Shown here: positions 1 to 64,000 of the stretch, piece after piece
Layout of the letters: every line of letters starts with the position of its first letter
Numbering within the stretch: the first letter of the stretch is position 1
The notes under the pieces: generated by a model
Database searches by the model: none
Seen by the model: only the letters and a program-made list of their open reading frames with translations
Told to the model about the DNA's origin: nothing
From: an uncultured bacterium
GTDB lineage: Bacteria; Armatimonadota; Hebobacteria; CAIYQO01
DNA: 64,000 nucleotides
Direction of reading: 5' to 3'
Assembly (NCBI GenBank): GCA_903928345.1
Contig: CAIYQO010000302.1
Span: 5,680-69,679 of the forward strand
Position numbers and translations under genes: made by a program

Positions 1-46
1 GGCGTTTGACAACGCCCGCCACAACGGCGCCACGTGGGGGACCGCC

Positions 47-8998: not shown

Positions 8999-9125
8999 CG
9001 GGGATGGGGGGGCGCGCCGACAGGCGCGGAACCGCAAAGTAAACCGGATTGGGTAGCGCCATATTTTAGTTTTTAGCTTTTGTCTTGCATGATAGCCGCA
9101 AGGGATGTCGAATACAGAGGTTGTT

Positions 9126-9452
9126 ATGATCACCTACGACAAGGGCACATTGCTTATCGACCGCGCGCAGGAAGGCGAGGATGTCCATCCCTTGCTGGAG
9201 ACCGGGCGGACGGAGCGCTGGTTTCTCGAGTTGCGCATCACCGAGCAGGCGGCGCTGGAATACCTGATCGACGCGGAGATCGTCGGCGACGACATCCCCG
9301 TGCGCTACATCGCACGCGACGGGCAAAGCTTCACCGGCATCGCGCAGGTGGAGGAATCCCTCTGCGCCGACGAGCAGAAGCTCTTCCTCCTCCGCGGCTA
9401 CGGCAAGCCCCCCGCCGTCTTCCTGGCCGACAGACCGGATAAAATGGGGTAA
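9126..9452 (+). CDS. Hypothetical small protein (~108 aa).
   Basis: ORF 9105..9452. The ATG at 9126 has a GAGGT RBS 5 nt upstream. An AT-rich promoter-like stretch lies at 9060-9100. No recognisable domain. Confidence 0.4.
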   Translation: MITYDKGTLLIDRAQEGEDVHPLLETGRTERWFLELRITEQAALEYLIDAEIVGDDIPVRYIARDGQSFTGIAQVEESLCADEQKLFLLRGYGKPPAVFLADRPDKMG

Positions 9453-11830: not shown

Positions 11831-12598
11831 CTACTCCGCCCCAACCTTCTCCAGCAACAACCCGATTTTATCGATCTCGATGCAGATCAATTCATCGATA
11901 ATCGCTTCGCTTGACCAACCACGGTCAAGCATGAAATGCTGTGGGCCGACCGAAGTGACTTTCCACCCTCGTGCCCGCAGCACGGCTGCCTTTTCCTCCC
12001 GTGCCAGTGACAGCGGAGCTAGTAACAGATCCACGGCTCGCTGGAATCCCCAAAGATAGGCCACGGTATGCTCCACGGTTTCGTACGCGTAAAACATGCC
12101 TGGCCGAACCCTCGTATGTTCCAGGTCGATAATGGATTGCCGTAGACGCATGGATAGCGGCAGATCGGCGGTGAAGTCCATAAATCGGATATACGCGGCA
12201 TCGTATCGCGGCTTCGATGGTATTTCCGTCCATTGATAAGTCGCCAATACGGCACGACTTGCCTGGCGCACGGCCGCCCATCCCGGTCGATGCAAAGTGG
12301 AAAGACGAGCTTCCGCATACGCCGTGCGCTCTTCTGGCGATGGAGGCTGCTTCCAGGGGATAGGTACCGACTCCACATGCGCGCAGGCATCCACTACCTG
12401 CTGCAATGCCGTCTGCTGCACCTCGGTTGGATGCCAATCATCCCGACCGACAAGGACAGTGCACCAGTGTTTCAATTCCGTACGCAGCACACCAGGGTCA
12501 GTGTCTTCCGGCATATATGCCACCAACGCCTCCGCCGGCAGCGCCAGCGCCTGCAAGGTGGTGATCAATTGCTCGAGTGGGGATTCGCAGTAGTTCAT
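11831..12598 (-). CDS. Hypothetical protein (~255 aa).
   Basis: Long ORF. Start at MNYCESPLEQL (12598) fits spacing with the upstream small gene (ends 12615). No recognised domain. Confidence 0.45.
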   Translation of the reverse strand: MNYCESPLEQLITTLQALALPAEALVAYMPEDTDPGVLRTELKHWCTVLVGRDDWHPTEVQQTALQQVVDACAHVESVPIPWKQPPSPEERTAYAEARLSTLHRPGWAAVRQASRAVLATYQWTEIPSKPRYDAAYIRFMDFTADLPLSMRLRQSIIDLEHTRVRPGMFYAYETVEHTVAYLWGFQRAVDLLLAPLSLAREEKAAVLRARGWKVTSVGPQHFMLDRGWSSEAIIDELICIEIDKIGLLLEKVGAE

Positions 12599-12614
12599 CT
12601 CCCCCCATTTCCCC

Positions 12615-12851
12615 TCAACGGTCCCGACGTGTGACAATATCCCGAAAGAGCGTAAACACGACCAGAAAATCGATGACACAGAAGCCGGCGATGGCAATGA
12701 CGGCGTTGTAGTAATACATCGCGGTGCCGAGGGTAAGGCCGACGGCGGCCAATATGGTGACAATCCACCCCGCACCCAGCTCCTCGGCGTTCATCACCAG
12801 CAGCACGAGCAGCACCACCGCAAACGGGAGGACAAACAGAAGGGATTCCAT
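12615..12851 (-). CDS. Small membrane protein (two predicted TM helices, ~78 aa).
   Basis: MESLLFVLPFAVVLLVLLV... and ...IVTILAAVGLTLG... are hydrophobic segments. Adjacent and co-directional with the downstream hypothetical. Confidence 0.4.
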   Translation of the reverse strand: MESLLFVLPFAVVLLVLLVMNAEELGAGWIVTILAAVGLTLGTAMYYYNAVIAIAGFCVIDFLVVFTLFRDIVTRRDR

Positions 12852-15354: not shown

Positions 15355-17139
15355 TCAATGCGCGCCGGGGTCGAGTTGCGCGAAGTAATCTTTTACGCGC
15401 TGGGTGTAGCTCGGGGGCACTTGCTCGGCTTCGATGGCGTGCTCGGCGCCCTTGTGGTAGTCGGAGTAGACCTCCGTATACGGCACCCCGGTGCGTCCGC
15501 CGCCGTCGCCACCGCGCACGTCTACCGTGCTCACGCCCGGGTCGCCCGCCGGAAGCGGGTGCTCGCCGACGCCGTAGCCGTTGCGCAGCCCGTGGTGCAA
15601 CGACTGCTGTCCGCCGCCCGCCACATAGGCCGGATCGCCGTCGTGCGTGCCGTAGAAGTTCGGGTTGGGATCTTCGTTCGGCTTGGAATCGTGCCCGGCG
15701 CCATTATTGCCGCCGGTGGCGTTGGGATGCCGGCCGGTGCCCCCACCGCCGGAGCCCTTCTTGCCGCCGGAGCCGCCGCCGCGACCGCCGTTGCGCCCGT
15801 TGCCGTTGCCGTTTTGGCCGCCCTTGCCATTCCCGTTGCCGTTGCCGCGGTTGTTGCCGGACTGGTTGTCCGCCATGGCGCGGCGCGCGTTCTCCATGTT
15901 GCCCATCGCCTGGTTGAGCATATCACCGGCGTCGCTCTGCCCACCGTTGCCGCCGGGCATGTTCGACATGCTGTTGCCCGCCTGCTGCTGCCCCTGCGAC
16001 GTGCCCTGCTGCAACTGTCCTGCGGCGTTGCGCATCGCCTGTGAACTCGCCGACGACCCGTTGCGCTGGGCGGCGTTCGCCATGTGGCGCATCGCCTGCG
16101 ACAGCGCCTGTTGCGCCTGGGGCGACAGGGCGCCGTTCTTCATCGGCACGCCCAACCGGCGCAGCGCGTCGGTGGCGGCAGCCATATTTCCCGCCGCCAG
16201 CGCGCGTTGCAGCGCCTGCATGGCCTCTTCACGCTCCAGCGCGTTGCGCTCTTGCGGGGTGAGCTGCTGCTTGGACAAACCGGCAGCCAGCCGCGCTTTC
16301 GCTTGTTGCGCGGCGGCCTTTTCCGCCTCCGAGCGGCTGTTCAGCGCGGCCTGCGCCTGCGCGGCGGCGTTTTGCAGCTCCTTCTGCGCCTGTTCGACAT
16401 CGTCGCGCACCTTCGCCTGCTGCAGGTGCTCCATCTCGTCGCGCAGCTTATTCCAGCGCTTCATCGCCTCTTTTTTGGGCAGACGGTTCTTTTCCATCTC
16501 CACCGCCAGCTTGCGTAAGCGGCGCACCAGCTGCTGGATTTCCGGGTCGTGGCGCAAGGCGTCGTGTTCGTCGAGCTTTTTCGCCGTCTCGTGCAATGTC
16601 ACCCCGGCGTCGTGCACCGCGGCCCGCTCAGCGCGCGCCATGGGGCTGTAAAACCAGGGTAAATTGGGCAGTAGACAGCCGAGGAGCACCGCCATCCACA
16701 CCGCCAGCGCGGCGCGATAAGGGCGGGCAAAGATGCGTGGAAAGAGCGCCTTGGGATCGAGGCCTTGCAGGTGCGCGACGGCGTCGTCGGTGACGAGGGT
16801 GCGGAATTCCGGGTGCGCCTGCGGATCGGCGAGCAGCGCCACCGCGGTGCTGGCGCGTTCCTGCAGCGCGCAGCGGCGCTCCACGGTAAGGGCAATGGAG
16901 AGTGCGTCGGGGCGGCGGACATAGGCGAGGCCCGCGCCGACCAGCGCGCCAAGGAGGCAGACGATGGTCAGTTCGAGGGGGGTAACGTACCAGATGGTGC
17001 AGAGGTCGATAAGGAGGAGCACCAGCCCCACCACACCGGCGCCGGCCACCCCCCAGCAGATCCAGCGCTCGCAGAAGAGCCACAGGATACGGCGACGGAA
17101 GGCCTGCAGTTGCGCGGCTAATGCGGTTGCGTGGTCCAT
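15355..17139 (-). CDS. Membrane-anchored coiled-coil protein with a long Gln/Asn/Gly-rich low-complexity region and a conserved C-terminal module.
   Basis: Two or three N-terminal TM segments. Long heptad-like coiled-coil (EMEKNRLPKKEAMKRWNKLRDEMEHLQQAK...). Then a ~200-aa N/G/Q-rich tract (NGNGNGKGGQNGNGNG...). C-terminus VPYTEVYSDYHKGAEHAIEAEQVPPSYTQRVKDYFAQL. GGAGG RBS. Start at MDHATAL (17139). Confidence 0.6.
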   Translation of the reverse strand: MDHATALAAQLQAFRRRILWLFCERWICWGVAGAGVVGLVLLLIDLCTIWYVTPLELTIVCLLGALVGAGLAYVRRPDALSIALTVERRCALQERASTAVALLADPQAHPEFRTLVTDDAVAHLQGLDPKALFPRIFARPYRAALAVWMAVLLGCLLPNLPWFYSPMARAERAAVHDAGVTLHETAKKLDEHDALRHDPEIQQLVRRLRKLAVEMEKNRLPKKEAMKRWNKLRDEMEHLQQAKVRDDVEQAQKELQNAAAQAQAALNSRSEAEKAAAQQAKARLAAGLSKQQLTPQERNALEREEAMQALQRALAAGNMAAATDALRRLGVPMKNGALSPQAQQALSQAMRHMANAAQRNGSSASSQAMRNAAGQLQQGTSQGQQQAGNSMSNMPGGNGGQSDAGDMLNQAMGNMENARRAMADNQSGNNRGNGNGNGKGGQNGNGNGRNGGRGGGSGGKKGSGGGGTGRHPNATGGNNGAGHDSKPNEDPNPNFYGTHDGDPAYVAGGGQQSLHHGLRNGYGVGEHPLPAGDPGVSTVDVRGGDGGGRTGVPYTEVYSDYHKGAEHAIEAEQVPPSYTQRVKDYFAQLDPGAH

Positions 17140-17155
17140 CACTTCCTCCCACCCG

Positions 17156-17206
17156 CGAGGTGTTTCTATTATACCACGACGCGGCCCCTCCCGCACGGGA
17201 GGGGCC
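17156..17206 (-). promoter_or_regulatory. Terminator hairpin of the PPIase gene followed by an extended -10 (TGgTATAAT) promoter for the coiled-coil gene.
   Basis: Minus strand reads cggcccctcccgtgcgggaggggccg (hairpin), then cgtGGTATAATag about 20 nt before the ATG at 17139. Confidence 0.4.
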
Positions 17207-18445: not shown

Positions 18446-18676
18446 TTGCGGAGGTGCTCCCGTTCTCTGGTTGTCTTCTGCCTGAAGGCGGGCTCTCTGG
18501 TTGCCCGTGCCGATATCTTACGCGTTCCGCGGGGGGCGCGAGGGTCGGAAAACGCACGTCTGTGCAGATTTCACGACACCGCACTGCCCTTTTCCGCAAA
18601 ACCCCCTACCCGGGATAGACGGACTTCCGCTCTCAGCAGACGCCGGCGTTGCCGGTTGTGTGCGCCGACGCACAGG

Positions 18677-19414
18677 CTACCACCCCGGTTGCTTCTTATA
18701 CTCCGCCGCCAACGCACAGCCACCTTCGTGACAGGGCCCCCAGGCGCATTCGGCGCCCATGTTTTCAAAGACCACCGGCACCTGCACCTGTACCAGCGTG
18801 CGGATCGCGCGGAAGAGGGCGCGGATCTCCCATTGCGCACGGCTGCAGAGGCGTTGGCGCGCCATCTCCAGCAATTGACGGGCGTTGACGGTCATCACCA
18901 GCTCCGTCTCGCACGCGTTAGGCAGCAGGAAGCGCGCATCTTCGTTCACCGCTTCCGCGTTGGCCGCCGGGTCGGCGTCGTGGAGCAGTGCCTGCAGCGC
19001 CGCGTAGTTCTCCGTGAGCGTGCCCATCACGTCGCGGTAGCGCGCCAGTGCTTCCGGGCAGGCGCGCACGCGCTCCGGCACCACGAAGCGGAAACCCGCC
19101 TTGTCCACGTAGCGCTGGCTCTGCTGAGCGTATGAAGCGATGCGGTGGCGCACGAGCTGGTGCGAACAGGCGCGTGAGATGCCGCGGATGGCGAAGGTGA
19201 AGGTGAGGTGTTCCAGGATGCCCCAGTGTCCGCGTGCGAGCACCCGGTCGCGCAGCCAGGCGCCCATGTCCGCCTCAGTGTCCAGCGGCGTCACGGCGGG
19301 GTAGCCGTCTTTGCTGTAGCAGATGCGTGCGGCGGCGTAAGCGGGAAAAAGGGTTCCCGTCCAGTGCACCAGTTCGACGTGCAAGGACGTCTCGCGGCTC
19401 GTATCGGCGGTCAT
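18677..19414 (-). CDS. thyX: FAD-dependent thymidylate synthase ThyX.
   Basis: ThyX motif RHRIASYAQQSQRY (RHRxxxxxxxSxR). ~245 aa. Confidence 0.85.
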   Translation of the reverse strand: MTADTSRETSLHVELVHWTGTLFPAYAAARICYSKDGYPAVTPLDTEADMGAWLRDRVLARGHWGILEHLTFTFAIRGISRACSHQLVRHRIASYAQQSQRYVDKAGFRFVVPERVRACPEALARYRDVMGTLTENYAALQALLHDADPAANAEAVNEDARFLLPNACETELVMTVNARQLLEMARQRLCSRAQWEIRALFRAIRTLVQVQVPVVFENMGAECAWGPCHEGGCALAAEYKKQPGW

Positions 19415-19612
19415 GGCGGCTCCCGTGCGCTAAATATGTGGCAGGGACAATTGTAGCACACTAGCAGCGGTCTGCATAGCGGCGGCGAGGAATGGGAAGT
19501 CGTGCGGAGGCTAGCAACACGACTTCGCCCCCCACCACGCAACGACCAACGGCAAACGGGGTGTCTCCACGGAAGGAAACACCCCGAACGCGGGCCGTGC
19601 GTAGCGGGCCGG

Positions 19613-19891
19613 TTACTGGGCGGCGTTGAGTCGCTTCATCAACCGGGACTTGCGGCGGGCGGCGGTATTCTTGTGAATGATCCCCTTGGTCGCGGCGCTG
19701 TCGATTTCCTTCAACGCCAGCTTCACCTTGTCGACACTGGCAGCAGCATCGGTGGTGATCGCGGCGAGCGCCTTGGTGCGCAGCGTCTTGAGCTTGGACT
19801 TGACGGACTGATTCCGCAGACGGTTGCGCTCATGGATCAGCAGATCTTTTTTTGCCGATTTGGTATTGGGCACAGCAGGCTCCTTTGCCAT
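19613..19891 (-). CDS. rpsT: 30S ribosomal protein S20.
   Basis: MAKE...KSAKK...GIIHKNTAARRKSRL matches S20. Confidence 0.8.
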   Translation of the reverse strand: MAKEPAVPNTKSAKKDLLIHERNRLRNQSVKSKLKTLRTKALAAITTDAAASVDKVKLALKEIDSAATKGIIHKNTAARRKSRLMKRLNAAQ

Positions 19892-19918
19892 AGCTCGCGC
19901 TTGCGAGCGGTCGAAAAA

Positions 19919-20317
19919 CTAGCGCTTGGAGAACTGGAAGCCGCGGCGGGCGCGCTTGCGACCGTACTTCTTCCGCTCTTTGACGCGGGCGTCGCGCGTC
20001 AGCATCCCGTATTGACGCAGCAGCTTGCGCAGCGCCTCATCGAATTGCACCAGCGCGCGGGCGATGCCGTGGCGCATCGCGCCGGCTTGCCCGGAGTTGC
20101 CGCCGCCCAGACACTTGACGGTCACGTCGAAGCGGTCGGTTAGATTGGAAATTGCCAACGGGGACATCGCCATGATCTCCAGCGTCGGACGGCACATGTA
20201 CCCGTGCAGGGTCGTGCCATTGACGACGACCTTGCCGGTGCCTTCCCGCAGCCACACCTTAGCGGTGGCGTTTTTTCGATGCCCGGTCCCGTAGAAAAAT
20301 TCGTCAACCAAGGTCAT
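19919..20317 (-). CDS. rpsI: 30S ribosomal protein S9.
   Basis: YYGTGHRKNATAKVWL...KYGRKRARRGFQFSKR is the S9 C-terminus. Confidence 0.9.
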   Translation of the reverse strand: MTLVDEFFYGTGHRKNATAKVWLREGTGKVVVNGTTLHGYMCRPTLEIMAMSPLAISNLTDRFDVTVKCLGGGNSGQAGAMRHGIARALVQFDEALRKLLRQYGMLTRDARVKERKKYGRKRARRGFQFSKR

Positions 20318-20335
20318 GCCTCCTCATCGACAGGG

Positions 20336-20776
20336 CTACTGCCGAAACGACTCCGTGATATTCACCGGCTGTTGCGCCGCATGGGGATGCGTGTCGCCTG
20401 CGTAAATCTTCAGCTTCAGCGCCATCTTGCGGCCGAGTGCGTTCTTCGGCAGCATCCCTTTGATGACGCGGCGCACCGCCTCAGCGGCGTTCTTTTCCAT
20501 TGCGCGGCCCAGGGGTTCGGCCTTCTGCCCGCCGGGATACCGGCTGTGCGTTAAGCGGATCTTCGTTGCCATTTTGTCCGCGGTCACGCGCACTTTGTGG
20601 GCATTGACGATGATGACAAAATCACCGGTGTCCACGTTGGGCGTAAAGATCGGTTTATGCTTGCCGCGCAGCAGGGACGCCACCCGCGCCGACATCCGGC
20701 CCAGCACCAGGTCCGTCGCGTCGACCAGCAGCCAACTGTGGTCAACTTCCTGCGATTTCGCCAGAAAACTCTTCAT
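20336..20776 (-). CDS. rplM: 50S ribosomal protein L13.
   Basis: HSWLLVDATDLVLGRMSARVASLLRGKHKP is the L13 N-terminus. Confidence 0.9.
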   Translation of the reverse strand: MKSFLAKSQEVDHSWLLVDATDLVLGRMSARVASLLRGKHKPIFTPNVDTGDFVIIVNAHKVRVTADKMATKIRLTHSRYPGGQKAEPLGRAMEKNAAEAVRRVIKGMLPKNALGRKMALKLKIYAGDTHPHAAQQPVNITESFRQ

Positions 20777-32515: not shown

Positions 32516-34600
32516 TTACCGCTCTTCCTCGGCGCGCCGCTTCGCATCGGCGATAATCCCTTCGGCGGCGTGCGGCGGCACCTCTTCGTAGTGCGAGAGG
32601 CTCATGGTGAAGCTCCCGCGTCCCTGGGTGAGCGCGCGCAATTCGTTGGAATATTGGAACATCTCCGCCTGCGGTACCTGCGCCTTCACGGTGGACATGC
32701 CGCCGCCGGATGCCTCGGTCCCCTGCACGCGGCCTCGCTTGCTCGACATACCGCCGATGATGTCGCCGATGTATTCGTCCGGTACAGTGACCTCGACGTT
32801 CACGTACGGCTCCAGCAGCACGGGCATGGCCCGCGTGATGGCATCCTGAAAGCCTAGACGCGCCGCGCTCTGGAAGGCTATATCCTTCGAGTCCACCGGG
32901 TGGTACTGGCCATCGTAGAGCGTGACGCGCACGTCGACGACGGGGTAGCCGGCCAGCGGGCCGTGCTTGATCGTCTCGCGGATGCCCTTTTCGACCGACG
33001 GGATGTACTGCCGGGGCACGACGCCGCCGACGACGGCGTCGACAAATTCGAAGCCGACGCCACGCTCCAGCGGTTCGAGCTTGATCTTCACGTCGCCGAA
33101 CTGCCCGGAGCCGCCGGTCTGCTTCTTATGCCGCCCGTGGCCGTCCGCCGCGGCGCGCACCGTTTCGCGGTAGGCGACCACCGGGTTGCCGGTGACCGTT
33201 TCGACGTTGAACTTGCGCTTCAGGCGATCCTGAATCACCCCCAGGTGCAGCTCGCCCATGCAGGCGATGATCGCTTCGTGGGTCTCCGGATCCTGCTCGA
33301 AGTGCAGGGTGGGATCCTCTTCGACAAAACGATGGAGCCCCTGGGCCATCTTATCCTCTTCCCCCTTGTTCGTCGGGGCGATAGAGAAGTTGAGCATCGG
33401 GATCGGATAAGCAGGCGGGATGACGATGACGCGCTCGGTCGCGGTGGCGAGGGTATCCGCGGTCGCGGAGGCGTGCAACTTGGCGACGAGGACAATGTCC
33501 CCCGCCTTGGCCGTCTCAATCGGCTCCTGCTGCTTGCCGATGAAGGCAAACAGGTTGCCGACGCGCTCCCTGGCTTCCTTATTCGAATTATACGCTTCTG
33601 AGCCCGAAGGCAAAGTGCCGGCGTAGACACGCAAAAATGTGATGCGCCCCGCGAAGGGGTCGGCCGTAGTTTTGAACGCGTAGGCGACGAGTGCCCCCGC
33701 GCTGTTGGACTTCACCGTGACTTCCGCATCGCCCTTCGTCGCCGCGACCGGCGCCACCTGGTTGGGGGCGGGGGTGCTGGAGACGAGCAGGTCGAGCAGG
33801 GCGGTGGTACCGAAATTCTTTACCGCGGCACCGAGTAGTACCGGGAAAATGCGCCCGGCACGCACCCCTTCCTGCAAGCCGAGGATGATCTCCTCGTCGG
33901 AGAGATCGCCTTCTTCCAGATACTTCAGGGTCAGGTCGTCATTCGCCTCGGCGGCGGCTTCCACCACCGCTTCGCGCAGCGACGCGGCCTTGCTCTGCAA
34001 TTCGGCAGGGATGGCCTCTACTTTCGGCGCGGCCAGGTCTTCGGTTTCTAGGAGCGCGTGCATGGAGATCAGATCCACCATACCGTGGAAACCGGTTTGC
34101 TCGCCGATGGGGAGCTGCAACGCGACGACGCCGGAGCCGAAGCGCGCCTTGAGGGCGGCCAGCGTGTTGTCGAAGTTGGCGTGCTCTTTATCCATCTTAT
34201 TGACATAGAGTACACGCGCCAGCCCGCGGGCATCGGCCATGCGCCAGTAGCGTTCCGTCTGCACCTCGATGCCGTTCACCGCATCGATGACCATCAGCGC
34301 GGTATCCGCCACGTGCAGGGCGCCGACGACCTCACCGACGAAGTCGGCAAAGCCCGGCGTATCCAGCACGTTTAGTTTCACGCCATTATACTGCACGGGC
34401 AGCAGCGATGTACTGATGGAGATCTGACGCTGAATCTCGTCCACGTCGATGTCGGACAAGGTGGTGCCGGCGTCAACGCGCCCCATGCGGCCGATTACGC
34501 CCGTCTGGTACATCATCGCTTCTGCCAGCGTGGTCTTACCCGCGCCGCCGTGGCCAATGAGCGCCACGTTGCGCAGTGATTCGGTTTCATAGGTCTTCAT
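32516..34600 (-). CDS. Elongation factor G paralog (EF-G2 / EF-G-like translational GTPase) embedded between rpsQ and rplN.
   Basis: 694 aa. G1 [10 protein letters not shown]3 DTPG, G4 NKMD. Domain IV loop YHPVDS. Domain V present. Only ~35-40% identical by eye to the canonical fusA at 40798-42866. Intergenic gaps to the flanking ribosomal genes are 24 nt and 9 nt. Confidence 0.8.
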
Positions 34601-35631: not shown

Positions 35632-36672
35632 CTAGGCGTCGGCCTGCTCGTCCGCCGGGCTTTCCGCTACCGGGGTCTCGTCGAGAGTCGCGTCCGGGGT
35701 GGTCAGCGGGGCCGTGCCCGCTGCTTCCGGGGCAATCTCTTCCACACCTTCGATGACCGCGCTCACCGCGTCGATCGCTTCCGCGACCGACTCTTCACGC
35801 GGCACGCGGCGCCAGCCCTTCTTCTTTTCCGCCGCGGCCTGCGCGGCGGTCTGGGCGGCGACCGGCGCGGCGGCTTGCGTCGGACCGGCGGTCGGGAGCG
35901 GCACTTCGCGGCGCATCGGGCGCGCCACGGGCAACTCGGAAGCGCCGGGGAGGATTTCCCCGCGGTAAATCCAGACCTTCACGCCGATGTTCCCATACTG
36001 TGTGCGTGCTTCGCTCAGTCCATAATCGATGTCGGCGCGCAGTGTATGCAGCGGAACTTTGCCGTCTTTATCCGAATACGAGCGTGCGATTTCCGCGCCA
36101 CCCAGGCGACCGGACACGATCACCTTGATCCCCTTGCCGCCGCGCTGCATGGTGCGCGCAATGGCCAGGCGAATGGCGCGCTTAAAGGAGACGCGACGCT
36201 CGATCTGATTGGCCACGGAATCCGCCACCAGCAGGGCATCGAGTTCCGGTTGCTTGATCTCGAGCACATTGAGCTGAATTTTGCGCGGGGTGAGCTTTTC
36301 GAGTTCGGCACGCAGCTCGTCGATGCCGCGTCCGCCGCGCCCGATGATCAACCCCGGACGCGCGGTATGCATCGTCACCTTGATGATATTGGCCATGCGT
36401 TCGATTTCGATCTGCGAGACCCCGGCGTCCATGCCGCGACCGCCACGCCCACCGGAGTTACGTCCGCCGCCACCGCCACCACGTCCGCCGGACCCACCGC
36501 GACGTGCGCCGCCGGCACCGGCCAGCAGCACGGGTAAGCGCGCGCGGAGGTATTTGCGGATCGTGTGGTCCTCGATCACAAAAGCCTTATACTCTTTGTC
36601 CGCGAACCAGCGGCTTTGCCAGTCGCGAATGATGCCGAGACGGAATCCGTAAGGATGAACCTTCTGCCCCAT
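35632..36672 (-). CDS. rpsC: 30S ribosomal protein S3 with an internal Gly/Arg-rich insertion and a long acidic/Ala-rich C-terminal tail.
   Basis: [20 protein letters not shown]...KH domain. Insertion [39 protein letters not shown] before VSQIEIER. 346 aa versus ~230 typical. Confidence 0.9.
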
Positions 36673-38716: not shown

Positions 38717-39387
38717 GCCACACCCCCTTGGTTGGCCATCCAGCGCGCGATCCCCAGCGGCCGTTGTTTCAGTGCGGTCAGCGCGTCGAGGCTCGTGCGG
38801 GTAAAGAGCAGGCAGTCCGCCAACAGCGTTTCGTAGGTGCCCACCGACTCGGGGGTGGTCACCGCCACTTGCGGCAGGTTGCGGAAGGAGAGCACCACCT
38901 CGGCGGTGAGCGTCTCCGTCACCACCAGCACGCGCTTGTCCGCGATCTCCAGCGCCTGGAGCAGCGCCGCGGCGTCGCGGGTGCGGGGAGCGGTGAAGGT
39001 AAAGGCGTCGATGACGCGGATAGCGTTCTCCTGTGCTTTCGCGGAGAGCACGGAGAGGAGCGCCTTGCGCCGCATCTTCTTATTCAACGACTGGCGGTAA
39101 TCGCGGGGATGCGGCCCAAAGACCACGCCGCCGCCCTTCCAATGGGGGGCGCTCTTCATCCCCTGGCGAGCACGACCGGTGCCCTTCTGGCGGAAGAGTT
39201 TGCGCGTGGTATGATGGACTTCGCCGCGGGTTTTGGTGTCCGCGGTCCCCTGGCGCTGATTGGCCAGCGTCGCCCGCACGGCCTGATGGACCAGCGCTTC
39301 ATGGGGCTCGATGCCGAACACGTCGGCCGCCAGCTCGATTTCACCCGCCGGCTGCCCGGCGGCCGTATACACAGGTATGGTGGCCAT
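38713..39387 (-). CDS. rplD: 50S ribosomal protein L4.
   Basis: [31 protein letters not shown] matches L4. Confidence 0.9.
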
Positions 39388-40172
39388 CAGTCTTTCTCCA
39401 ATGCGGTAAAGGTCACGTACTTGCCCTTGCCGCGCTCGATGACGGGACGATCAGGCAGGGTCACCACGACGAGGCTGCCGTTGGCCCCGGGCACGGCGCC
39501 CTTGAGGACAAGCATGTTCTTTTCGGCGTCGGCGCGCACCACGGTCAGGCCCTTCACGGTTACCTGTTCGTTGCCCATGTGGCCCGGGCGGCGGGCGCCG
39601 GGGAAGACGCGGGCGGCATCGGTGGCGCCGCCGGAAGCCGGCTTGCGGTGGAACATGGAACCGTGGGAAGCCTTGCCACCCTTGAAGCCGTAGCGTTTCA
39701 TGACGCCGGCGAAGCCGCGGCCTTTGGAGGTGCCCGCCACGTTGACCTTCTCACCGGCGGTGAAGAGGTCGGCGCGCAGAATGGCGCCTTCGGCGAAATC
39801 GTCCGGGACGGCGACGGTGAATTCCTGCAGGTAGCGCAGCGGTGGCACATTGTGCTTGGTGAAGTGCCCGAGGGCGGCCAGGGTAATGCGGCGCTGCTTG
39901 CCACGGGGATCCGTGTCAATGGAGGTGCGCGTATTCGTTTTGCGGCGCTGGTCGTGTTCGCGGCGCAGCTCTTCGGCATGCTTCACGTCGCGCTCTTCGA
40001 ACTCGAGATACCCGAGCTGGACGGCTTCGTAGCCGTCGCGCTGTTTCGTGCGCCGCTGTACCACATAGCAGGGTCCGACTTCCAACACCGTCACCGGCAC
40101 GGCCTTGCCGTCCGGATCGAAGAGCTGCGTCATGCCCACCTTGCGTCCCATGATCATCTTGCGAACTGCCAT
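39387..40172 (-). CDS. rplC: 50S ribosomal protein L3 with a ~60-aa internal insertion.
   Basis: MAVRKMIMGRKVGMTQLF...; FKGGKASHGSMFHRKPASGG. Start at 40172 (MAVRK) rather than 40238. Confidence 0.85.
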   Translation of the reverse strand: MAVRKMIMGRKVGMTQLFDPDGKAVPVTVLEVGPCYVVQRRTKQRDGYEAVQLGYLEFEERDVKHAEELRREHDQRRKTNTRTSIDTDPRGKQRRITLAALGHFTKHNVPPLRYLQEFTVAVPDDFAEGAILRADLFTAGEKVNVAGTSKGRGFAGVMKRYGFKGGKASHGSMFHRKPASGGATDAARVFPGARRPGHMGNEQVTVKGLTVVRADAEKNMLVLKGAVPGANGSLVVVTLPDRPVIERGKGKYVTFTALEKD

Positions 40173-40271
40173 GGTTGTGTCCTTATCCTTTCCCGTCCCT
40201 AGCGGAGTCGTGAGCGGACTCATAGGGTTCCGGCGCAACCTGCGCCGGGTCCCGGCCCGCGGAGGGAGGGC

Positions 40272-40601
40272 CTAGATCTTGATCTCGATGTTTACACCGC
40301 CCGGCAGGTCGATACGCATGAGCGCGTCGATCGTCTTCGGATTCGGCTCCAGGATGTCGATGAGCCGCTTGTGCGTGCGCATCTCGAAGTGCTCCATCGA
40401 CTCTTTGTCGATGTGCGGCGAGCGGATCACGCAAAAGCGATTGATCTCGGTGGGCAGCGGCACGGGGCCCGCGATACGGGCGCCGGTGCGGCGGGCCGTC
40501 TCCACGATCTTCACGGCCGACTGGTCCAGAATCCGGTGGTCGAACGACTTCAGTCGGATACGAATTTTGTCGCTCGGCACGTTGCGAGTTTGTTTACGCA
40601 T
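40272..40601 (-). CDS. rpsJ: 30S ribosomal protein S10.
   Basis: [22 protein letters not shown] matches S10. Confidence 0.9.
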
Positions 40602-40688
40602 GGACGGTATGCCTCCGCTTGAAACAACGTATGCGCTGTTTCGGGCTTCTTGTCACGGTACATGTATCCCTGGGGACACACAGTTGAG

Positions 40689-40718
40689 AATTATAAGGTT
40701 TTCGCCCGCTCAAGTCAA
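40689..40718 (-). promoter_or_regulatory. Consensus sigma-70 promoter (TTGACT-17-TATAAT) for the S10 operon, with ~80-nt leader.
   Basis: Minus strand reads TTGACTtgagcgggcgaaaacctTATAATtctcaactg. Lies between the fusA stop and the rpsJ start. Confidence 0.5.
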
Positions 40719-40797
40719 CAGGTTGGACGAAAATAGTTGTCGGCGGTGAATCTGCTGTCGGCACATCCGGTTTCCGACTGCCGCACCGCGCCGTCCC

Positions 40798-42866
40798 TCA
40801 CTTGCCGATCACTTCTTCGGCAATGGATTTCGGCACTTCCTGGTAATGCGACGGCTCCATCGCATAGTTGGCGCGGCCTTGCGACAGCGAGCGCACGGTG
40901 GTGGCGTAGCCGAACATTTCGGAGAGCGGCACCTTGGAGCGAATGGCTTGCAGGCCGCCCGGTTGTGCTTCCAGGCCGTCGATATGCGCGCGACGCGAAC
41001 TCAGGTCGCCCATGATCTCGCCCATGTTCAATTCCGGGCAGATCACTTCCACGCGCATGATCGGTTCCAGCAGGATCGGCTTCGCTTTCCGCATCGCCTC
41101 TTTGAAGGCAATGGAGCCGGCGAACTTGAAGGACATCTCGTCGGAGTCCACTTCGTGGTAGGAACCGTCGTAGAGCGTCACCTGCAGGTCGATCACCGGG
41201 TAGCCGCCGAGGACGCCGTTGTCCAGCGCCTCGCGGATCCCCTGTTCCACCGCGGGGATGTACTCACGCGGCACTACGCCGCCCACCACGCCGTCGACGA
41301 AGCGGAAACCGGCGCCGGTCTCCAACGGGGCGATTTCGATGCGGACGTGGCCGTACTTGCCGCGGCCCCCCGTCTGGCGGATGTAGCGCCCTTCGGCCTT
41401 CGCGATCTGCGTGACCGTCTCACGGTACGCAACCTGCGGCCGACCGATGTTCGCTTCGACGCGCGATTCGCGGCGCAGCCGGTCCACGATGATCTCCAGG
41501 TGCAATTCGCCCATGCCGGAGATGATCGTCTGCCCGGTTTCGGCATCGGTGTATTGGCGGAAGGTGGGGTCCTCCGCGGCCAGGCGCACCAACCCGTTGG
41601 TCAACTTCTCCTCGTCCACCTTCGTCTTCGGCTCGATCGCCACCGAGATGACGGGTTCGGGGAAGTGGATCTTTTCCAGCAGCACCTGGTCCGCATGTCC
41701 GGTGAGGGTATCGCCCGTCGTGGTGGTGTCGAGACCGACGACGGCCACGATATCGCCGGCACGCACTTCCTCCACCTCTTCGCGGTGGTTGGCGTGCATG
41801 CGCAGGACACGGCCCAGGCGCTCGCGCTTGCCCTTGCTGACGTTCATCGCGCGGTGCCCTTGGCGACGGTGCCGCTGTAGCAGCGCAGGTAGGTGATGCG
41901 GCCCACGTAGGGGTCGGACATAATCTTAAACGCGAGGGCGCTGAAGGGGGCGTCGTCACTCGGCTCGCGCCAGAGTTCTTCGCCCGTGTGCGGGTCTTCC
42001 CCGCGTACGGCGCCGACGTCCAGCGGCGAGGGGAGGTATTCCACCACGGCGTCCATCAGCGGCTGCACGCCCTTGTTGCGGAAGGAGGCGCCGCAGAGCA
42101 CGGGGACGATCTCGATGCGCAGCGTGCCCGCACGGATTCCCGCGCGGATCTCCTCTTCGCTAAACGTCCCGCCCTCGAGATATTTGTGCATCAGCGTGTC
42201 GCTGCCGTCGGCGGCCGCCTCGATGACGTGCTCGCGATGCTCCAGGGCCAGGGCCATCAGGTCGGCGGGGATCTCCGTTTCGATCATCTGTTGACCCAAC
42301 TCGTCGGGGTACAGCAGCGCGACCATGCGCACCAGGTCAATGACGCCCTTGAACTCGCCCTCTTCGCCGATGGGGAGCTGCAGCGGCACCGGGCGGATGC
42401 CCAGCCGCTCGCGCATGGATTCCAGCACGCGGAAGAAGCTGGCGCCGGTGCGATCCATCTTATTGATGAAGGCGATGCGCGGCACCTTATAGCGATTGGC
42501 CTGCCGCCACACCGTCTCCGATTGCGGCTGCACGCCGCCCACGGCGCAGAACAGGCCGATGACGCCGTCGAGCACGCGCATGGAGCGTTCCACTTCCATG
42601 GTGAAGTCGACGTGTCCCGGCGTGTCGATGATGGTAATCAGGTGGTCGCGCCAGTGGCAGGACGTGGCCGCGGAGGTGATGGTGATGCCGCGTTCCTGCT
42701 CCTGCGGCATCCAGTCCATGGTGGCGGCGCCATCATGCACCTCACCCATGCGATGCAGCCGTCCGGTGTAGAACAGCATGCGCTCGGTGGTCGTGGTCTT
42801 GCCGGCGTCGATGTGCGCGGCGATTCCGATATTACGTGTACGTTCCAGTGGGTATTCTCGTGCCAT
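40798..42866 (-). CDS. fusA: Elongation factor G (canonical fusA), split into two ORFs by an apparent 1-nt indel near 41845.
   Basis: N-terminal half: [27 protein letters not shown]-terminal half: YHEVDS, domain V. The two ORFs abut at 41844/41847. Inserting one nucleotide in gcgcgATGaac restores ...[18 protein letters not shown]..., which is co-linear with Thermus EF-G (TLTSGSYVYNTTKGRKER). Confidence 0.85.
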
Positions 42867-43007
42867 AGTATTCTCAAGCTCCGCGTCCTGCGTGCGCGCC
42901 CTGGGCGCGTCCTGGATCGGCCCGGTTCCCCGAGCAGGCATCCGGGACAGACGAAGTCCCATCCCTATGAACGGGATGGGACTCGTACATGTACCGGAAA
43001 GGGTGTC

Positions 43008-43478
43008 TTAGTACCGGTAGTGGGCGAAGGCCTTGTTGGCTTCGGCCATGCGGTGCGTGTCGTCGCGCTTTTTCACCGAGGCGCCGCTATTATTGGCGGC
43101 GTCCATCAGCTCGCCGGCGAGCTTTTCGCTCATCGTCTTGCCGCCGCGCTTGCGCGCGTTGCTGATGATCCAGCGCATGCCCAGGTCGAGTTTGCGCACG
43201 GCGCGCACTTCCATCGGCACCTGGTAGGTAGCGCCGCCCACGCGGCGAGGACGTACCTCGACGGCGGGGATGACGTTGCGCATGGCAACTTCGAGCACTT
43301 CCAGCGGATCTTTGCTCGTGCGCTTGTTAATCAGATCCAGCGCGCGGTAGAAGATCCCCTCGGCGATGCTTTTCTTGCCGCCGTGCATCATCTTATTGAT
43401 GAAGCGGCTGATCAGCTCACTGTTGTAGACGGCGTCCGGCACGATCAAGCGGCGCGGCGCAGGTCCTTTTCTCGGCAT
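43008..43478 (-). CDS. rpsG: 30S ribosomal protein S7.
   Basis: [22 protein letters not shown] matches S7. Confidence 0.9.
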
Positions 43479-43530: not shown

Positions 43531-43980
43531 TTACTTGCGGCCCTTCGCCGCGGCCTGGCCGGGCTTCGGGCGCTTGGCGCCGTATTTCGAACGCCCCTGC
43601 TTACGATTCGCCACGCCGGCGGTATCGAGCACGCCACGGACGATGTGGTAGCGGATCCCCGGCAGGTCCTTCACGCGGCCGCCGCGAATCATCACGACGG
43701 AGTGTTCCTGCAGGTTGTGCCCCTCGCCCGGAATGTAGGCGGTGACTTCGATGCGGTTGGTGAGGCGGACGCGCGCCACTTTGCGCAGCGCCGAGTTCGG
43801 CTTCTTCGGGGTCACGGTCCAGACACGCGTGCAGACGCCGCGCTTCAGCGGGCCCTCGGTCATGACGTACTTGCGCTTATTGCTGTTAAAGTTCCAGCTC
43901 AACGCCCAACGCACGGTCGGGGTGATCTTCACGTGCGCCCGCTGACGCCCCTTACGAACTAATTGATTGATGGTCGGCAC
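43531..43980 (-). CDS. rpsL: 30S ribosomal protein S12 (GTG start).
   Basis: [13 protein letters not shown]...[16 protein letters not shown] matches S12. GGAGAG SD before the GTG at 43980. Confidence 0.9.
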
Positions 43981-44063
43981 GCAGGCCTCTCCTTCATCGG
44001 AAAATCGCGACGGTGGGCCGGAAAATTCTCGGCACACGCAACGCCGCTCCGCGCGTCACGCCG

Positions 44064-52402: not shown

Positions 52403-52950
52403 ATGTATAACACAACGGTTGATGAATACTTCCGCATTGAAGAAGCCGTTGAAGTCAAACATGAATACGTCGAGGGTGTCGTGTATCCGATGACCGGGTT
52501 TACCGAGAACCACTGCCTCATCATCGGCAACGTGATGGTCGACCTGATGAATCGACTCGATGACACACCATGCCATGTCTATTCCAGTCACTTTCGACTG
52601 AAGATCGCGGCCGACACGATCTATACATATCCCGATGGCTCGGTTGTCTGTGAAAAACCCTTGTTGGCCGACGGACGAGATGATGTATTTCTCAATCCCA
52701 CCGTTGTCTATGATGTGCTCTCGGATTACCTGGAAGCGTTTGATCGTCGAAAGAAGCCGTCTATTACCGCAATATCTCGACCCTACAGGAATATTTGCTA
52801 ATCTCCGTAGACCACCCCCACATCGAACACTATCGCCGGCATGGCCGCGGCTGGATTTTGACGGACATCTCCGTGTTGGACGATCAGGTCGTCCTCGATT
52901 CCATCGGCTGTACCCTGTCCTTGATGGACATCTACCGCCGGGTGCGCTTC
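52403..52950 (+). pseudogene. Uma2-family (DUF820) putative endonuclease, interrupted by a 1-nt frameshift near 52765-52775.
   Basis: N-terminal part ...VYDVLSDYLEAFDRRKK stops at 52801. The C-terminal part (...YYRNISTLQEYLLISVDHPHIEHYRRHGRGWILTD...) continues in another frame to 52950. Confidence 0.6.
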
Positions 52951-52965
52951 TGAACTACACGTCCC

Positions 52966-60793: not shown

Positions 60794-63700
60794 TTAATCG
60801 CCGCGCAACCCGTCGAGCAGCCGCCCGCGGGTGGCGGGCCAGGCGGTGAAGGCGGTGGCGGCGATGCCCAGTGCCAGGTTGCCTCCGAGCATGACGGCCA
60901 CGCCGCCCCAGGCCACGTGGGCGGTACCGAGTTGCGGCGCCACCGCCGCGAGGGCGGCGACGGCCCCGAGAAGCTGCCCGGCAACGAGCAGGCCGATGTT
61001 TTCCAGCAGCAGCAGGCGCACGAGCTGGGCGCGCGTGAAACCGACCGCGAGGAGCAGCGCGAACTCCCGCCGGCGCTCCAGCGCGTTGCGCAGCAGCACC
61101 ACCACCAGTCCCAGCGTGCCCAGCAACAAGCCCAGCCCGCCGAGAGCGAGGAAGCAGGCGAGGTAGGTATTTTCCACCCGCGCGTAGTCGGCCAGCACCT
61201 CGCGCGTCGGATGCACTTCCAGCCCCAGGTCACCCAGTGTGCGCCGCAGGGAAGCCGCCACCGCGTCGGCCTTTTCCCTCGGCGCCGAAATGAGAAAGTA
61301 CCGCGGCGCTGAGATGCCCGGGTACAGCGTGCGGAAGTTGGTGTCGGAGACGAGCAGCGCGTTGGCGAAGAGGCTGCCGGGCAGCACGCCCACGATATGC
61401 AGCGGTGCCGGCGCCCCCGCCAGCGGCACCCGCCCGCCCAACTCCGCGTGCAGCGACCACTCCACGCTATCGGCGTCGCCGAAGGCGGGGAAGGCGTCAT
61501 TTTCCGTCAGCAGCGCCCACGGCTGCGCCGTCGGTTTCGCGGTATTGATGGTGAAGCCGCCGCGTGCGCGCAGCGCGTCCGGCACCCCGAGCAGGCGCGG
61601 GGCGGCGCTCTTCGCCAGGTTCAAACAGCTCACTTCGTCGCCGGGGCTCTCCAGGAAGGGGTAGACCTGTACGCCGGCAAAAAGCGGTTCGTCCTCCGGC
61701 GCGAAACCGAGTTTCTCGCGCCCCGTCGGTGTGCCGAAGTCGTAGAGGATGGGCAGCGAGGCGGTAGCGAGCAGCGTGAAGCCCCCGGCGCCGGAGCGCG
61801 GGTCGCTGACATCGAAGCGCGAGAAGTCACGCACGCTGGCCGCCACGGTGATGAGCAGGAAGCTCGCGCACGCCAGCAGGCCGATCACCAGCACGCTGCG
61901 CCCGCGGTTAGCCGCCGCGTTGCGCAGCGCCAGGCGGGGGAAGGTGGGCACGCCGGGAGTCAACGCGCGCGCGAGCAACTGCCCGCACCCGAGCAACCCC
62001 GCCACGAGCAGCGCCGCGCCGCCGCAGAAGAAGGCCTCCAGCGGGGAGAGGGCGTGCGCCGCGCCGGCGGCAAAGCAGCCGACCGCCAACACCGCGCTGC
62101 CACCCAGCGCCCAGGCGCCGCGCGGTGGGGCGGGCAGCATCGCCAGCGCCTGCGCGCCGCCGAGGAGATCCGTCACCCGCGCCTTTTTCAACGCGCGCGT
62201 CCCCCACCAGGCTGCGGGCAGGCCGATCACAAAGCCCGACACCGCACCAATCCACAGGCTGCCCGGCGTGGCGTGGAACCACAGCGGGGTATCCGCCACC
62301 GCGCCCGCCCACCAGGTGGTCAGCGCGTGCACCACACCCCAGCCGTACAGCGCGCCCAACGGCACACCGATAACGGCCCCAAGCGCTGCCAGTGCGGCGC
62401 CTTCCGCCAGCAAGATACCTGTCACCGTGCGCGGCGCAATGCCCACCGCCAGCAGCAGCCCCACCTCGGCGGCGCGACGGTCGATCAACAAGCGCATGGT
62501 CATCGCCGCCAGCCCGACCGCCGCGGCGATGAGGAAAAAGCCCAGCGCCAGGAAGAGTCCCGCGAAGTCGGTGGCGCCTTCCGAGGCCGCCAGCGCCTGC
62601 GTGCGCACCGGCAGCGTCGGCACCCCCGCGGCTTCCGGGGGCAGCACCGCCGAGAGCGCGGTGGTGAAGCGCCGTGCCTGCGCCGCAAAATCGCCGGCGG
62701 GCACGCTGACGCGCACTCCCGTCACCCAATCCGCCTGTGCCCCCTCCGGCCCGCGCGCCCACAGCGCCCGCGCCGTTTCCAGGCTTACGAAGGCTTTCGG
62801 CGTGGTGCGGTAGCGCTGCCAGTACGTCTCGTCGCGCGGGGTGACGCGGTGCATGTCAACGGGGAAGGGCGGCGCCCATTCGTCGATGCGCTCCGCCGTG
62901 CTGATGCCGCGCAGCGGAGGCACGCAGGCGGTATCCGGCACCGTCGGCACCACGCCGCGCACGGTAAGGGGCCTCGTTTCCGTGCGGTAGACACCGTCCC
63001 ACGCGGGCACCAGGTAGCTGAGCGTCAGCACATCACCCGGCTTTGCGGCCAGATCCTCCGCGCTCCACGTGCTCAACCAGACCCCGTCCCCGTGCGCCTC
63101 CACCCCCGGCGGGGGCGCACCGAGCAGGGCGTAGGACGTGCCGTGCGCCGCGCCGGTGAGTTCGGCAGCGAGGTAAAACGAGGTCGGCGCCGCGCGCACG
63201 CCCGCGCGATCCGCCGCGTCGGCGATGGCCTTCACCATGGGCCGACGCAGCAGCAGGTCGGTGCTCTGCACGGTGAGGGTGCGTGCCGCGGGGTTGGTTT
63301 TCAGTGTCAGGCCCAGGTCGTCGAGGGTGGCGTGCGTCCGTACCGCTTCCGCCAGCTCCGTGCCGTGGGAGACGATTACATTCGCCAGCCCCGCGTCGTC
63401 GAGCTGCCCCTGCAACCAGTGCAAATCGATGAACACGTTGCGCGGGGTTTGCGAAGAGGCCGTCAGCGCGAAGCCCCCCACCCCGCGGTCGGGCAGGATG
63501 GCCGCCACGGTAAGGCGTACCGTACGCAGCGCCGCTTGCCGGGAGCGCTGCGCGAAGAGGGAATCCGCCGGCCCGGCCCCCGCGCGCGGCACGTGGAGAA
63601 TTACGTCGTCCCCCACCGCCACGCCCAGGTCGCGCGCCAGCGCCGCATTCACCGCCGCCTGCCGCCCGTTCACCGGGTTCGCGGTACCGAAGAGCGCCCA

Positions 63701-63961
63701 GAAGCGTCCCTCCACGCCATACACCTGCACGCGGGGCACGGTGGCGTCGTTCTCCGCCGTCAGCGCGCCGCGCGTCTGCAGCAGGGGGGCGTCCGACCCG
63801 GCCAACGCCTCGCGGAAGGCATGGCTGCCGACGGTCGCCGTGGATATAGCGCCCAGCCGTGCCAGCGCGGTGTCGCGCAGGCTGCCGCGCACGGAATCAC
63901 CCACCAGTAGCGAACCGGTGATCACCGCCGTGGCCGTCGCCAGCGCCAGTGCCACGGCCAT
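60794..63961 (-). CDS. Large ABC-transporter permease with duplicated FtsX/MacB-type domains (LolE/MacB-like).
   Basis: 1055 aa. Two sets of 4-TM FtsX-like modules (ALGFFLIAAAVGLAAMTM... and LGGLGLLLGTLGLVVVLLRNALERRREFALLLAVGF...) with large periplasmic loops. N-terminus close to the window end. Confidence 0.7.
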   Translation of the reverse strand: MAVALALATATAVITGSLLVGDSVRGSLRDTALARLGAISTATVGSHAFREALAGSDAPLLQTRGALTAENDATVPRVQVYGVEGRFWALFGTANPVNGRQAAVNAALARDLGVAVGDDVILHVPRAGAGPADSLFAQRSRQAALRTVRLTVAAILPDRGVGGFALTASSQTPRNVFIDLHWLQGQLDDAGLANVIVSHGTELAEAVRTHATLDDLGLTLKTNPAARTLTVQSTDLLLRRPMVKAIADAADRAGVRAAPTSFYLAAELTGAAHGTSYALLGAPPPGVEAHGDGVWLSTWSAEDLAAKPGDVLTLSYLVPAWDGVYRTETRPLTVRGVVPTVPDTACVPPLRGISTAERIDEWAPPFPVDMHRVTPRDETYWQRYRTTPKAFVSLETARALWARGPEGAQADWVTGVRVSVPAGDFAAQARRFTTALSAVLPPEAAGVPTLPVRTQALAASEGATDFAGLFLALGFFLIAAAVGLAAMTMRLLIDRRAAEVGLLLAVGIAPRTVTGILLAEGAALAALGAVIGVPLGALYGWGVVHALTTWWAGAVADTPLWFHATPGSLWIGAVSGFVIGLPAAWWGTRALKKARVTDLLGGAQALAMLPAPPRGAWALGGSAVLAVGCFAAGAAHALSPLEAFFCGGAALLVAGLLGCGQLLARALTPGVPTFPRLALRNAAANRGRSVLVIGLLACASFLLITVAASVRDFSRFDVSDPRSGAGGFTLLATASLPILYDFGTPTGREKLGFAPEDEPLFAGVQVYPFLESPGDEVSCLNLAKSAAPRLLGVPDALRARGGFTINTAKPTAQPWALLTENDAFPAFGDADSVEWSLHAELGGRVPLAGAPAPLHIVGVLPGSLFANALLVSDTNFRTLYPGISAPRYFLISAPREKADAVAASLRRTLGDLGLEVHPTREVLADYARVENTYLACFLALGGLGLLLGTLGLVVVLLRNALERRREFALLLAVGFTRAQLVRLLLLENIGLLVAGQLLGAVAALAAVAPQLGTAHVAWGGVAVMLGGNLALGIAATAFTAWPATRGRLLDGLRGD

Positions 63962-64000
63962 GCCGGTCCGCGCAAAGCCGCACAGGTTGCGGGCTATCAG

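Follow-up and report, generated by a model that had tools for sequence, protein, structure and literature searches.

The canonical elongation factor G gene (fusA) of the 64-kb window, by which we mean the whole stretch of DNA analysed here, occupies 40798-42866 on the minus strand and is split, in the ORF list and its translations, between an ORF of 340 codons and one of 349. Our analysis indicates that fusA is probably intact in the organism and that the base missing between the two ORFs is an assembly or polishing consensus error in one metagenome-assembled contig. In other words, we infer that sequencing or assembly, rather than an event in the cell, produced the gap. The features on which the argument draws are listed in Table 1.

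Table 1 Features of the fusA region, the EF-G2-like paralog and the Uma2-family gene (positions in the window).
Feature	Position	Strand	Description
rpsL	43531-44037 (longest ORF)	-	with rpsG, str operon context
rpsG (S7)	43008-43478	-	directly upstream of fusA; from the ORF list
fusA, N-terminal piece	41844-42866	-	340 codons from MAREYP plus TGA stop; G domain, G' and first part of domain II
AAGG, Shine-Dalgarno-like tetramer	41858-41861	-	14 nt upstream of the C-terminal piece's ATG; from a survey of upstream motifs
Junction	41844-41855	-	ACC GCG CGA TGA
fusA, C-terminal piece	40798-41847	-	349 codons, starting MNVSKGK; rest of domain II and domains III, IV and V
rpsJ (S10)	40272-40601	-	directly downstream of fusA, with no tuf between
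EF-G2-like paralog	32516-34600	-	694 aa; between rpsQ (S17) and rplN (L14); five-domain EF-G architecture (Pfam)
Uma2-family gene	52403-52953	+	second 1-nt deletion, near 52755/52756 (AAGAA/GCC)

The preliminary description of this DNA had reported that fusA is divided into two abutting ORFs by a single-nucleotide indel, and profile searches bear this out. Against TIGR00484, the NCBIfam equivalog model for EF-G, the N-terminal piece matches profile positions 1-338 with 529 bits and the C-terminal piece positions 341-687 with 545 bits. Each piece alone scores below the cut-off of 659.4 bits, and the two sum to ~1,074 bits. Because the matches meet at 338/341, the pieces represent one EF-G gene cut in two and not a chance pair of ORFs. 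The N-terminal piece has a Pfam GTP_EFTU match and carries all four G motifs, the catalytic His included. The C-terminal piece matches GTP_EFTU_D2 from profile position 24 of 73, indicating that the cut lies inside domain II, and continues through EFG_III, EFG_IV and EFG_C. Its earlier length of 349 codons stands, but the 356 codons given for the N-terminal piece do not: counted from the conserved MAREYP start at 42866 this piece has 340 codons, and as the longest ORF (41844-42962) it has 372. The MAREYP start is also the one recorded for a public protein, P0241, to which the N-terminal piece is identical. In the minus-strand context of the junction, ...GGC ACC GCG CGA TGA ACG..., the TGA stop of the first ORF (41846-41844) overlaps the ATG start of the second (41847-41845), forming an ATGA at 41847-41844. 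The gene is thus not a single uninterrupted frame, owing to a 1-nt gap at 41848/41849.

Nucleotide alignment with three intact homologues located the missing base. These were L001, a JGI metagenome contig and the best match (87.6% nucleotide identity), and L002 and L003 (75% nucleotide and 86% protein identity). Over its 2,070 nt the window fusA has exactly one internal gap, 1 nt in length, and it falls at the junction. L001 reads GGC ACG GCG CTG ATG AAC and L002 ...GCG CTC ATG AAT, where the window has GGC ACC GCG C-G ATG AAC. At the affected codon, each of the best 120 homologues has L, V or I and none has R; the closest relatives use CTG or CTC. The base lost between 41849 and 41848 is therefore most likely the T of a CTG (Leu) codon, which makes ...GTALMNVSK... 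the most likely restored peptide. It had been claimed that adding one base restores a peptide that aligns with Thermus EF-G. Around the junction, the repaired peptide and Thermus thermophilus EF-G (PDB 4myt_A 274-469) do align without a gap, but the version put forward at the time, ...GTARMNVSK..., is most likely wrong at the affected codon. Dropping this T would convert GCG CTG ATG AAC into GCG CGA TGA, an immediate stop, with Met as the next codon of the true frame. The tidy abutment of the two ORFs follows from the base being lost right before an existing ATG AAC: the shifted frame reads TGA and the true frame resumes at Met. Most of the closest relatives likewise have M, or else L, at this position.

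The finding of one 1-nt gap in 2,070 nt, with the two pieces meeting at positions 338 and 341 of TIGR00484, argues for a consensus error. The context of the gap argues against one. Homopolymers are the usual place of long-read indel errors, and the deletion site, GCGC[T]GATG, contains no homopolymer. The homopolymer error proposed in the preliminary description is accordingly not supported.

The two halves of the gene are in good condition. Downstream of the break, the frame runs for 349 codons with no further stop or indel and has a coding-type GC3 of 0.83. Values of dN/dS were low on both sides: 0.115 for the N-terminal and 0.072 for the C-terminal piece in comparison with L001, 0.045 and 0.030 with L002, and 0.087 and 0.101 with a further relative, L012 (GCA_964472305.1). 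The signs of a decaying pseudogene, namely several lesions and relaxed dN/dS, were not found in fusA; the lesion is a lone one and both halves are constrained. The equal constraint upstream and downstream of the break, together with the open 349-codon frame, excludes an old pseudogene, and the fusA lesion is either extremely recent or absent from the cell. The absence of decay and the constraint on both halves are further reasons to favor a consensus error.

The homologues point in the same direction. The best 120 are all single ORFs, nearly all of 688-717 aa with one 661-aa partial sequence, and this uniformity likewise supports a consensus error. The closest are Armatimonadota EF-Gs, the best of which is 92% identical to the repaired protein, and intact relatives at 92% and 84-86% identity keep the order rpsL-rpsG-fusA-rpsJ. 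Public assemblies often contain broken fusA calls, the fragments of which end at scattered positions; a hot spot of ~340-aa N-terminal fragments in other assemblies was looked for and not found. In one Armatimonadota contig, L093 (ENA ERZ25039519 contig_71567), fusA is in three pieces and rpsG, tuf, gap and rplC are split too, a damage pattern characteristic of an indel-prone assembly. The frequency of such broken calls, L093 among them, adds to the case for an error.

We also asked whether the split allele is seen elsewhere. The two half-proteins, P0241 and P0361, form one-member clusters among ~15 billion proteins and come from one 113,001-bp contig (NCBI and ENA). S7, the paralog and the Uma2 fragment are assigned to this contig too, which is evidently where the window comes from. 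Their singleton status on one contig, without independent support, is consistent with a consensus error. No intact EF-G of the same species was present in the protein collection, where the best match was the 92%-identical one. Searches for the exact junction sequence, either as it stands or with one base added, gave 0 matches in the genome contig collection and the JGI metagenomes, and in DNA scans of the JGI metagenomes a wobble-degenerate pattern for the species-specific peptide had 0 matches as well. With a 148-aa query centred on the junction, we found no same-species fragment that crosses it: none exceeded 79% identity, among matches listed that stop at 259 aa. A 279-aa one-sided query matched only the source's own N-terminal piece, and a related-locus search of genome contigs gave, among the matches listed, mostly distant phyla, with a best identity of 76%. 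Looking up S10 and L3 by exact match identified short ENA contigs from other assemblies. Four of these (L007-L010; ENA ERZ18625109, ERZ18626558, ERZ27313079 and ERZ27313096) are 99.9-100% identical to the window and a fifth (L011; ERZ27313095) is 97.9% identical. Together they cover 39170-40993 of the window, ending ~850 nt short of the junction, and there are 0 indels in the 1,824 bp shared with the window. L009 and L010 match the fusA-rpsJ spacer at 99.9-100% identity.

The presence of near-identical and 97.9%-identical strains in related samples bears on an alternative in which the fusA of the lineage is intact and the gap reflects either a real minority or dead-end variant or strain heterogeneity that led the assembler or polisher to emit it. 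The affected codon is variable among relatives (CTG or CTC; L, V or I), as would suit such heterogeneity, and the gene shows no decay. However, a consensus normally follows the majority allele, and we consider this explanation quite unlikely.

A different possibility is that the deletion is genuine and recent and that EF-G is made as two polypeptides. Ribosomes stopping at the UGA would then re-initiate at the AUGA, aided by the AAGG at -14, and a 340-aa fragment (G, G' and the first domain II strands) and a 349-aa fragment (the rest of domain II and domains III-V) would reassemble via the domain II beta-barrel. Re-initiation would be permitted by the ATGA stop/start overlap and the AAGG tetramer; rplF and rplW both have a similar AAGG with much the same spacing, at -13. 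A real split gene would therefore not be absurd. Both halves are intact and constrained, the site is an atypical context for an error, and the break presumably lies just after the KGTA turn of Thermus EF-G, where a strand begins, rather than in mid-strand. What counts most in favor of a genuine recent deletion is that the site is no homopolymer and that the window is otherwise clean.

Several observations weigh against two polypeptides. The AAGG tetramer, which is relevant only if the deletion is genuine, is part of the codons for a Lys-Gly dipeptide found in nearly all listed homologues, and the ATG encodes an internal Met. The closest relatives carry both in their intact genes, so that neither is an adaptation to a split gene. 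No other genome is split at this position, the fragments in other assemblies end at scattered sites and the allele is a singleton. In addition, the cut is inside a domain and not between domains. Known natural splits of essential genes are located at domain boundaries and shared within a clade, and a two-piece EF-G has, to our knowledge, no precedent. We therefore regard two-piece EF-G as unlikely. If true, it would be, as far as we know, the first natural one and an unusual instance of an essential GTPase of translation that works in two pieces.

Programmed recoding, in which a -1 ribosomal frameshift or transcriptional slippage would restore full-length EF-G from the sequence as it stands, is extremely improbable. 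Slipping back one base (-1) at CGA-UGA would bring the ribosome into the right frame, and shifting can be stimulated when the A site contains a stop codon. However, there is neither an X XXY YYZ heptamer nor a homopolymer for slippage, re-pairing of the CGA-bound Arg tRNA with GCG is impossible, and the 100 nt downstream fold no better than shuffled sequences (z = -0.98). Furthermore, a shift at this position is found in 0 of the 120 best relatives. On these grounds of heptamer, re-pairing, structure and conservation, we rejected a programmed -1 frameshift.

The preliminary description had also suggested that the break, if real, is tolerated thanks to an EF-G2 paralog, and we examined the second EF-G-like gene of the window with this in mind. 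Its product is 42% identical to the canonical EF-G of the window. The catalytic His is replaced by Phe (DTPGFADF vs DTPGHVDF) and switch I is altered (RQISI vs RGITI). Among the family models, NF009381 (an "elongation factor G" subfamily) scores best, at 899 bits, and the protein exceeds the TIGR00484 cut-off (701 vs 659 bits); it lies below the cut-offs of the EF-G2 models NF009377 (657 vs 890 bits) and NF058620 (584 vs 1000 bits). The location between rpsQ and rplN is unusual for an EF-G2-like factor. In L012, the orthologue at 18565-20649 is 76% identical, has Tyr at the His position (DTPGY) and resides in the same rpsQ-rplN slot, and fusA is intact. Its presence in the same slot beside an intact fusA indicates that the paralog is a long-standing co-resident and not a replacement.

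Could fusA nevertheless be truly inactivated, with translocation carried out by this paralog? The paralog is full length with five EF-G domains, scores above the EF-G cut-off and lies inside a ribosomal protein operon. Moreover, the Bacteroides thetaiotaomicron EF-G2 reportedly supports slow translocation, and Thermus EF-G2 is reported to have translocation activity. Against this, the paralog has lost the catalytic His and has an altered switch I, L012 keeps it together with an intact fusA, and the broken fusA is under no relaxed selection. The EF-G2 of Mycobacterium smegmatis, in which His is similarly changed to Tyr, cannot replace EF-G, and the H88Y substitution nearly abolishes the GTPase of M. 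smegmatis EF-G1. Compensation by the paralog is thus unlikely, the takeover of translocation after a true loss of fusA is very unlikely, and the suggestion that the break is tolerated on account of EF-G2 is not sustained. In the bolder variant of a real deletion, the cell would live on the His-less paralog alone. The gene for EF-G is essential in bacteria. This essentiality, in combination with a paralog that lacks the His and co-exists with an intact fusA in L012, again favors a consensus error.

A second 1-nt deletion is present within the same 64 kb, in the Uma2-family gene, and counts toward the error interpretation of fusA. The Uma2 pieces (52403-52801 and 52795-52953) are joined by one added base, and the repaired protein matches PF05685 over positions 1-164 of 172 with 78.8 bits, compared to 50.8 bits for the truncated ORF. 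The frameshift described earlier is therefore there, but the weight placed on it as a sign of sequencing indels has to be reduced. The gene lies in surroundings of ~50-52% GC, as against ~65% for the window (64.7% overall), which suggests acquired DNA. A genuine Uma2 pseudogene is plausible in such DNA, and the frameshift therefore backs the error interpretation weakly. The site, AAGAA[.]GCC, could also be the contraction of a short run. If Uma2 is a real pseudogene in foreign DNA, fusA would be left as the only clear error.

A frame-plot and Pfam survey of ~60 genes across the window found no frameshifts besides those in fusA and Uma2. The intactness of these other genes, like the 1,824 comparable bp without an indel, argues against an error-prone consensus. 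Two further candidates in the survey were rejected: an apparent frame change at ~49.8 kb is where tmk/darA adjoins a divergent trpC, and an overlap at 3.8-3.9 kb represents two separate genes. The survey also left some stretches that stand out. Strong coding signal without a Pfam match was found at 2-1366 (plus strand, 454 aa, running off the start of the window), 15355-17196 (minus strand, 613 aa) and 9105-9452 (plus strand, 115 aa). A 314-aa ORF at 11831-12775 (minus strand) falls within an 11.7-13.0 kb stretch left empty by the coding-signal gene picker. ARAGORN called a 93-nt tRNA-Thr(GGT) at 62257-62349 (minus strand) inside a long FtsX-domain ORF (60794-64000), and this call is probably a false positive.

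The surroundings of fusA are those of a canonical EF-G gene. On the minus strand, the order is rpsL, rpsG, fusA, rpsJ, rplC, rplD, rplW, rplB, rpsS, rplV, rpsC, rplP, rpmC, rpsQ, the EF-G-like gene and rplN onward. The rpsL-rpsG-fusA-rpsJ order is common to L001, L002 and L012 and places the gene in the str operon position of EF-G. Unlike in the classical str operon, tuf is absent between fusA and rpsJ (40602-40797), and tblastn located none in the 64 kb. The closer relatives L001, L002 and L012 also have fusA-rpsJ without tuf, and the more distant L093 has fusA-tuf-rpsJ. One of the short contigs, L007 (ERZ18626558), has 952 nt of rpsJ-rplC that are 100% identical to the window. In its positions 1-661 (against 40617-40797 of the window), the 3' end of a tuf gene, 85% identical to the tuf of L093, stands in place of fusA upstream of the rpsJ Shine-Dalgarno sequence. 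Possible explanations of this tuf end are chimerism of the scaffold, another strain in which the order is fusA-tuf-rpsJ, and an additional copy of rpsJ.

Some of the ribosomal proteins encoded in the cluster are enlarged. S3 (35632-36672, minus strand) has 346 aa, with a Gly/Arg-rich insertion and a long Ala/Pro/Glu-rich C-terminal tail; since the S3 of L012 has 365 aa, the enlargement seems to be a trait of the lineage. L24 (31489-32028, minus strand; 179 aa) has an internal insertion and a C-terminal extension with a zinc-ribbon-like CxxC...CxxC pattern. L5 (30771-31520, minus strand; 249 aa) has a Lys/Ala-rich N-terminal extension of ~70 aa, and the ORFs of L24 and L5 overlap by ~30 nt.

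Taken together, the earlier leaning toward a sequencing indel is supported circumstantially, by the lone lesion, the constraint on both halves, the intact relatives and the singleton half-proteins, and weakly by the Uma2 frameshift. If the gap is an artefact, the two ORFs should be merged as one fusA with a base added at 41848/41849, as a matter of annotation hygiene. The source assembly should likewise be treated as carrying occasional 1-nt deletions, and no biology should be rested on a "lost" EF-G or on compensation by EF-G2.

Comparison with known systems places the window fusA as follows. Like prfB (+1 at CUU UGA) and dnaX (-1 at A AAA AAG), the gene has a point of frame change, here with a stop codon directly at it. 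Unlike them, it would need a -1 shift without a slippery heptamer, a well-spaced stimulatory Shine-Dalgarno sequence, downstream structure or conservation. With split essential genes coupled through ATGA, it shares the ATGA overlap and a Shine-Dalgarno-like motif upstream, but its cut is inside domain II and unique to one contig. The EF-G1/EF-G2 pairs of Mycobacterium, Thermus and Bacteroides resemble the window in combining a str-operon EF-G with a second factor, here a His-less paralog of 42% identity. The window paralog differs from them in being embedded between rpsQ and rplN in the S10-spc cluster and in scoring below the NF009377 cut-off. Finally, single-base indel errors reportedly split genes in long-read or low-coverage metagenome assemblies. 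The window departs from such indel-split genes in that the fusA site is no homopolymer and in that there are 2 events in 64 kb and the rest is clean. It agrees with them in that fusA is one base short, its ORFs together make up the full protein and the split is present in one assembly only. A second 1-nt deletion lies near it, and in L093 the same kind of damage has occurred many times over.
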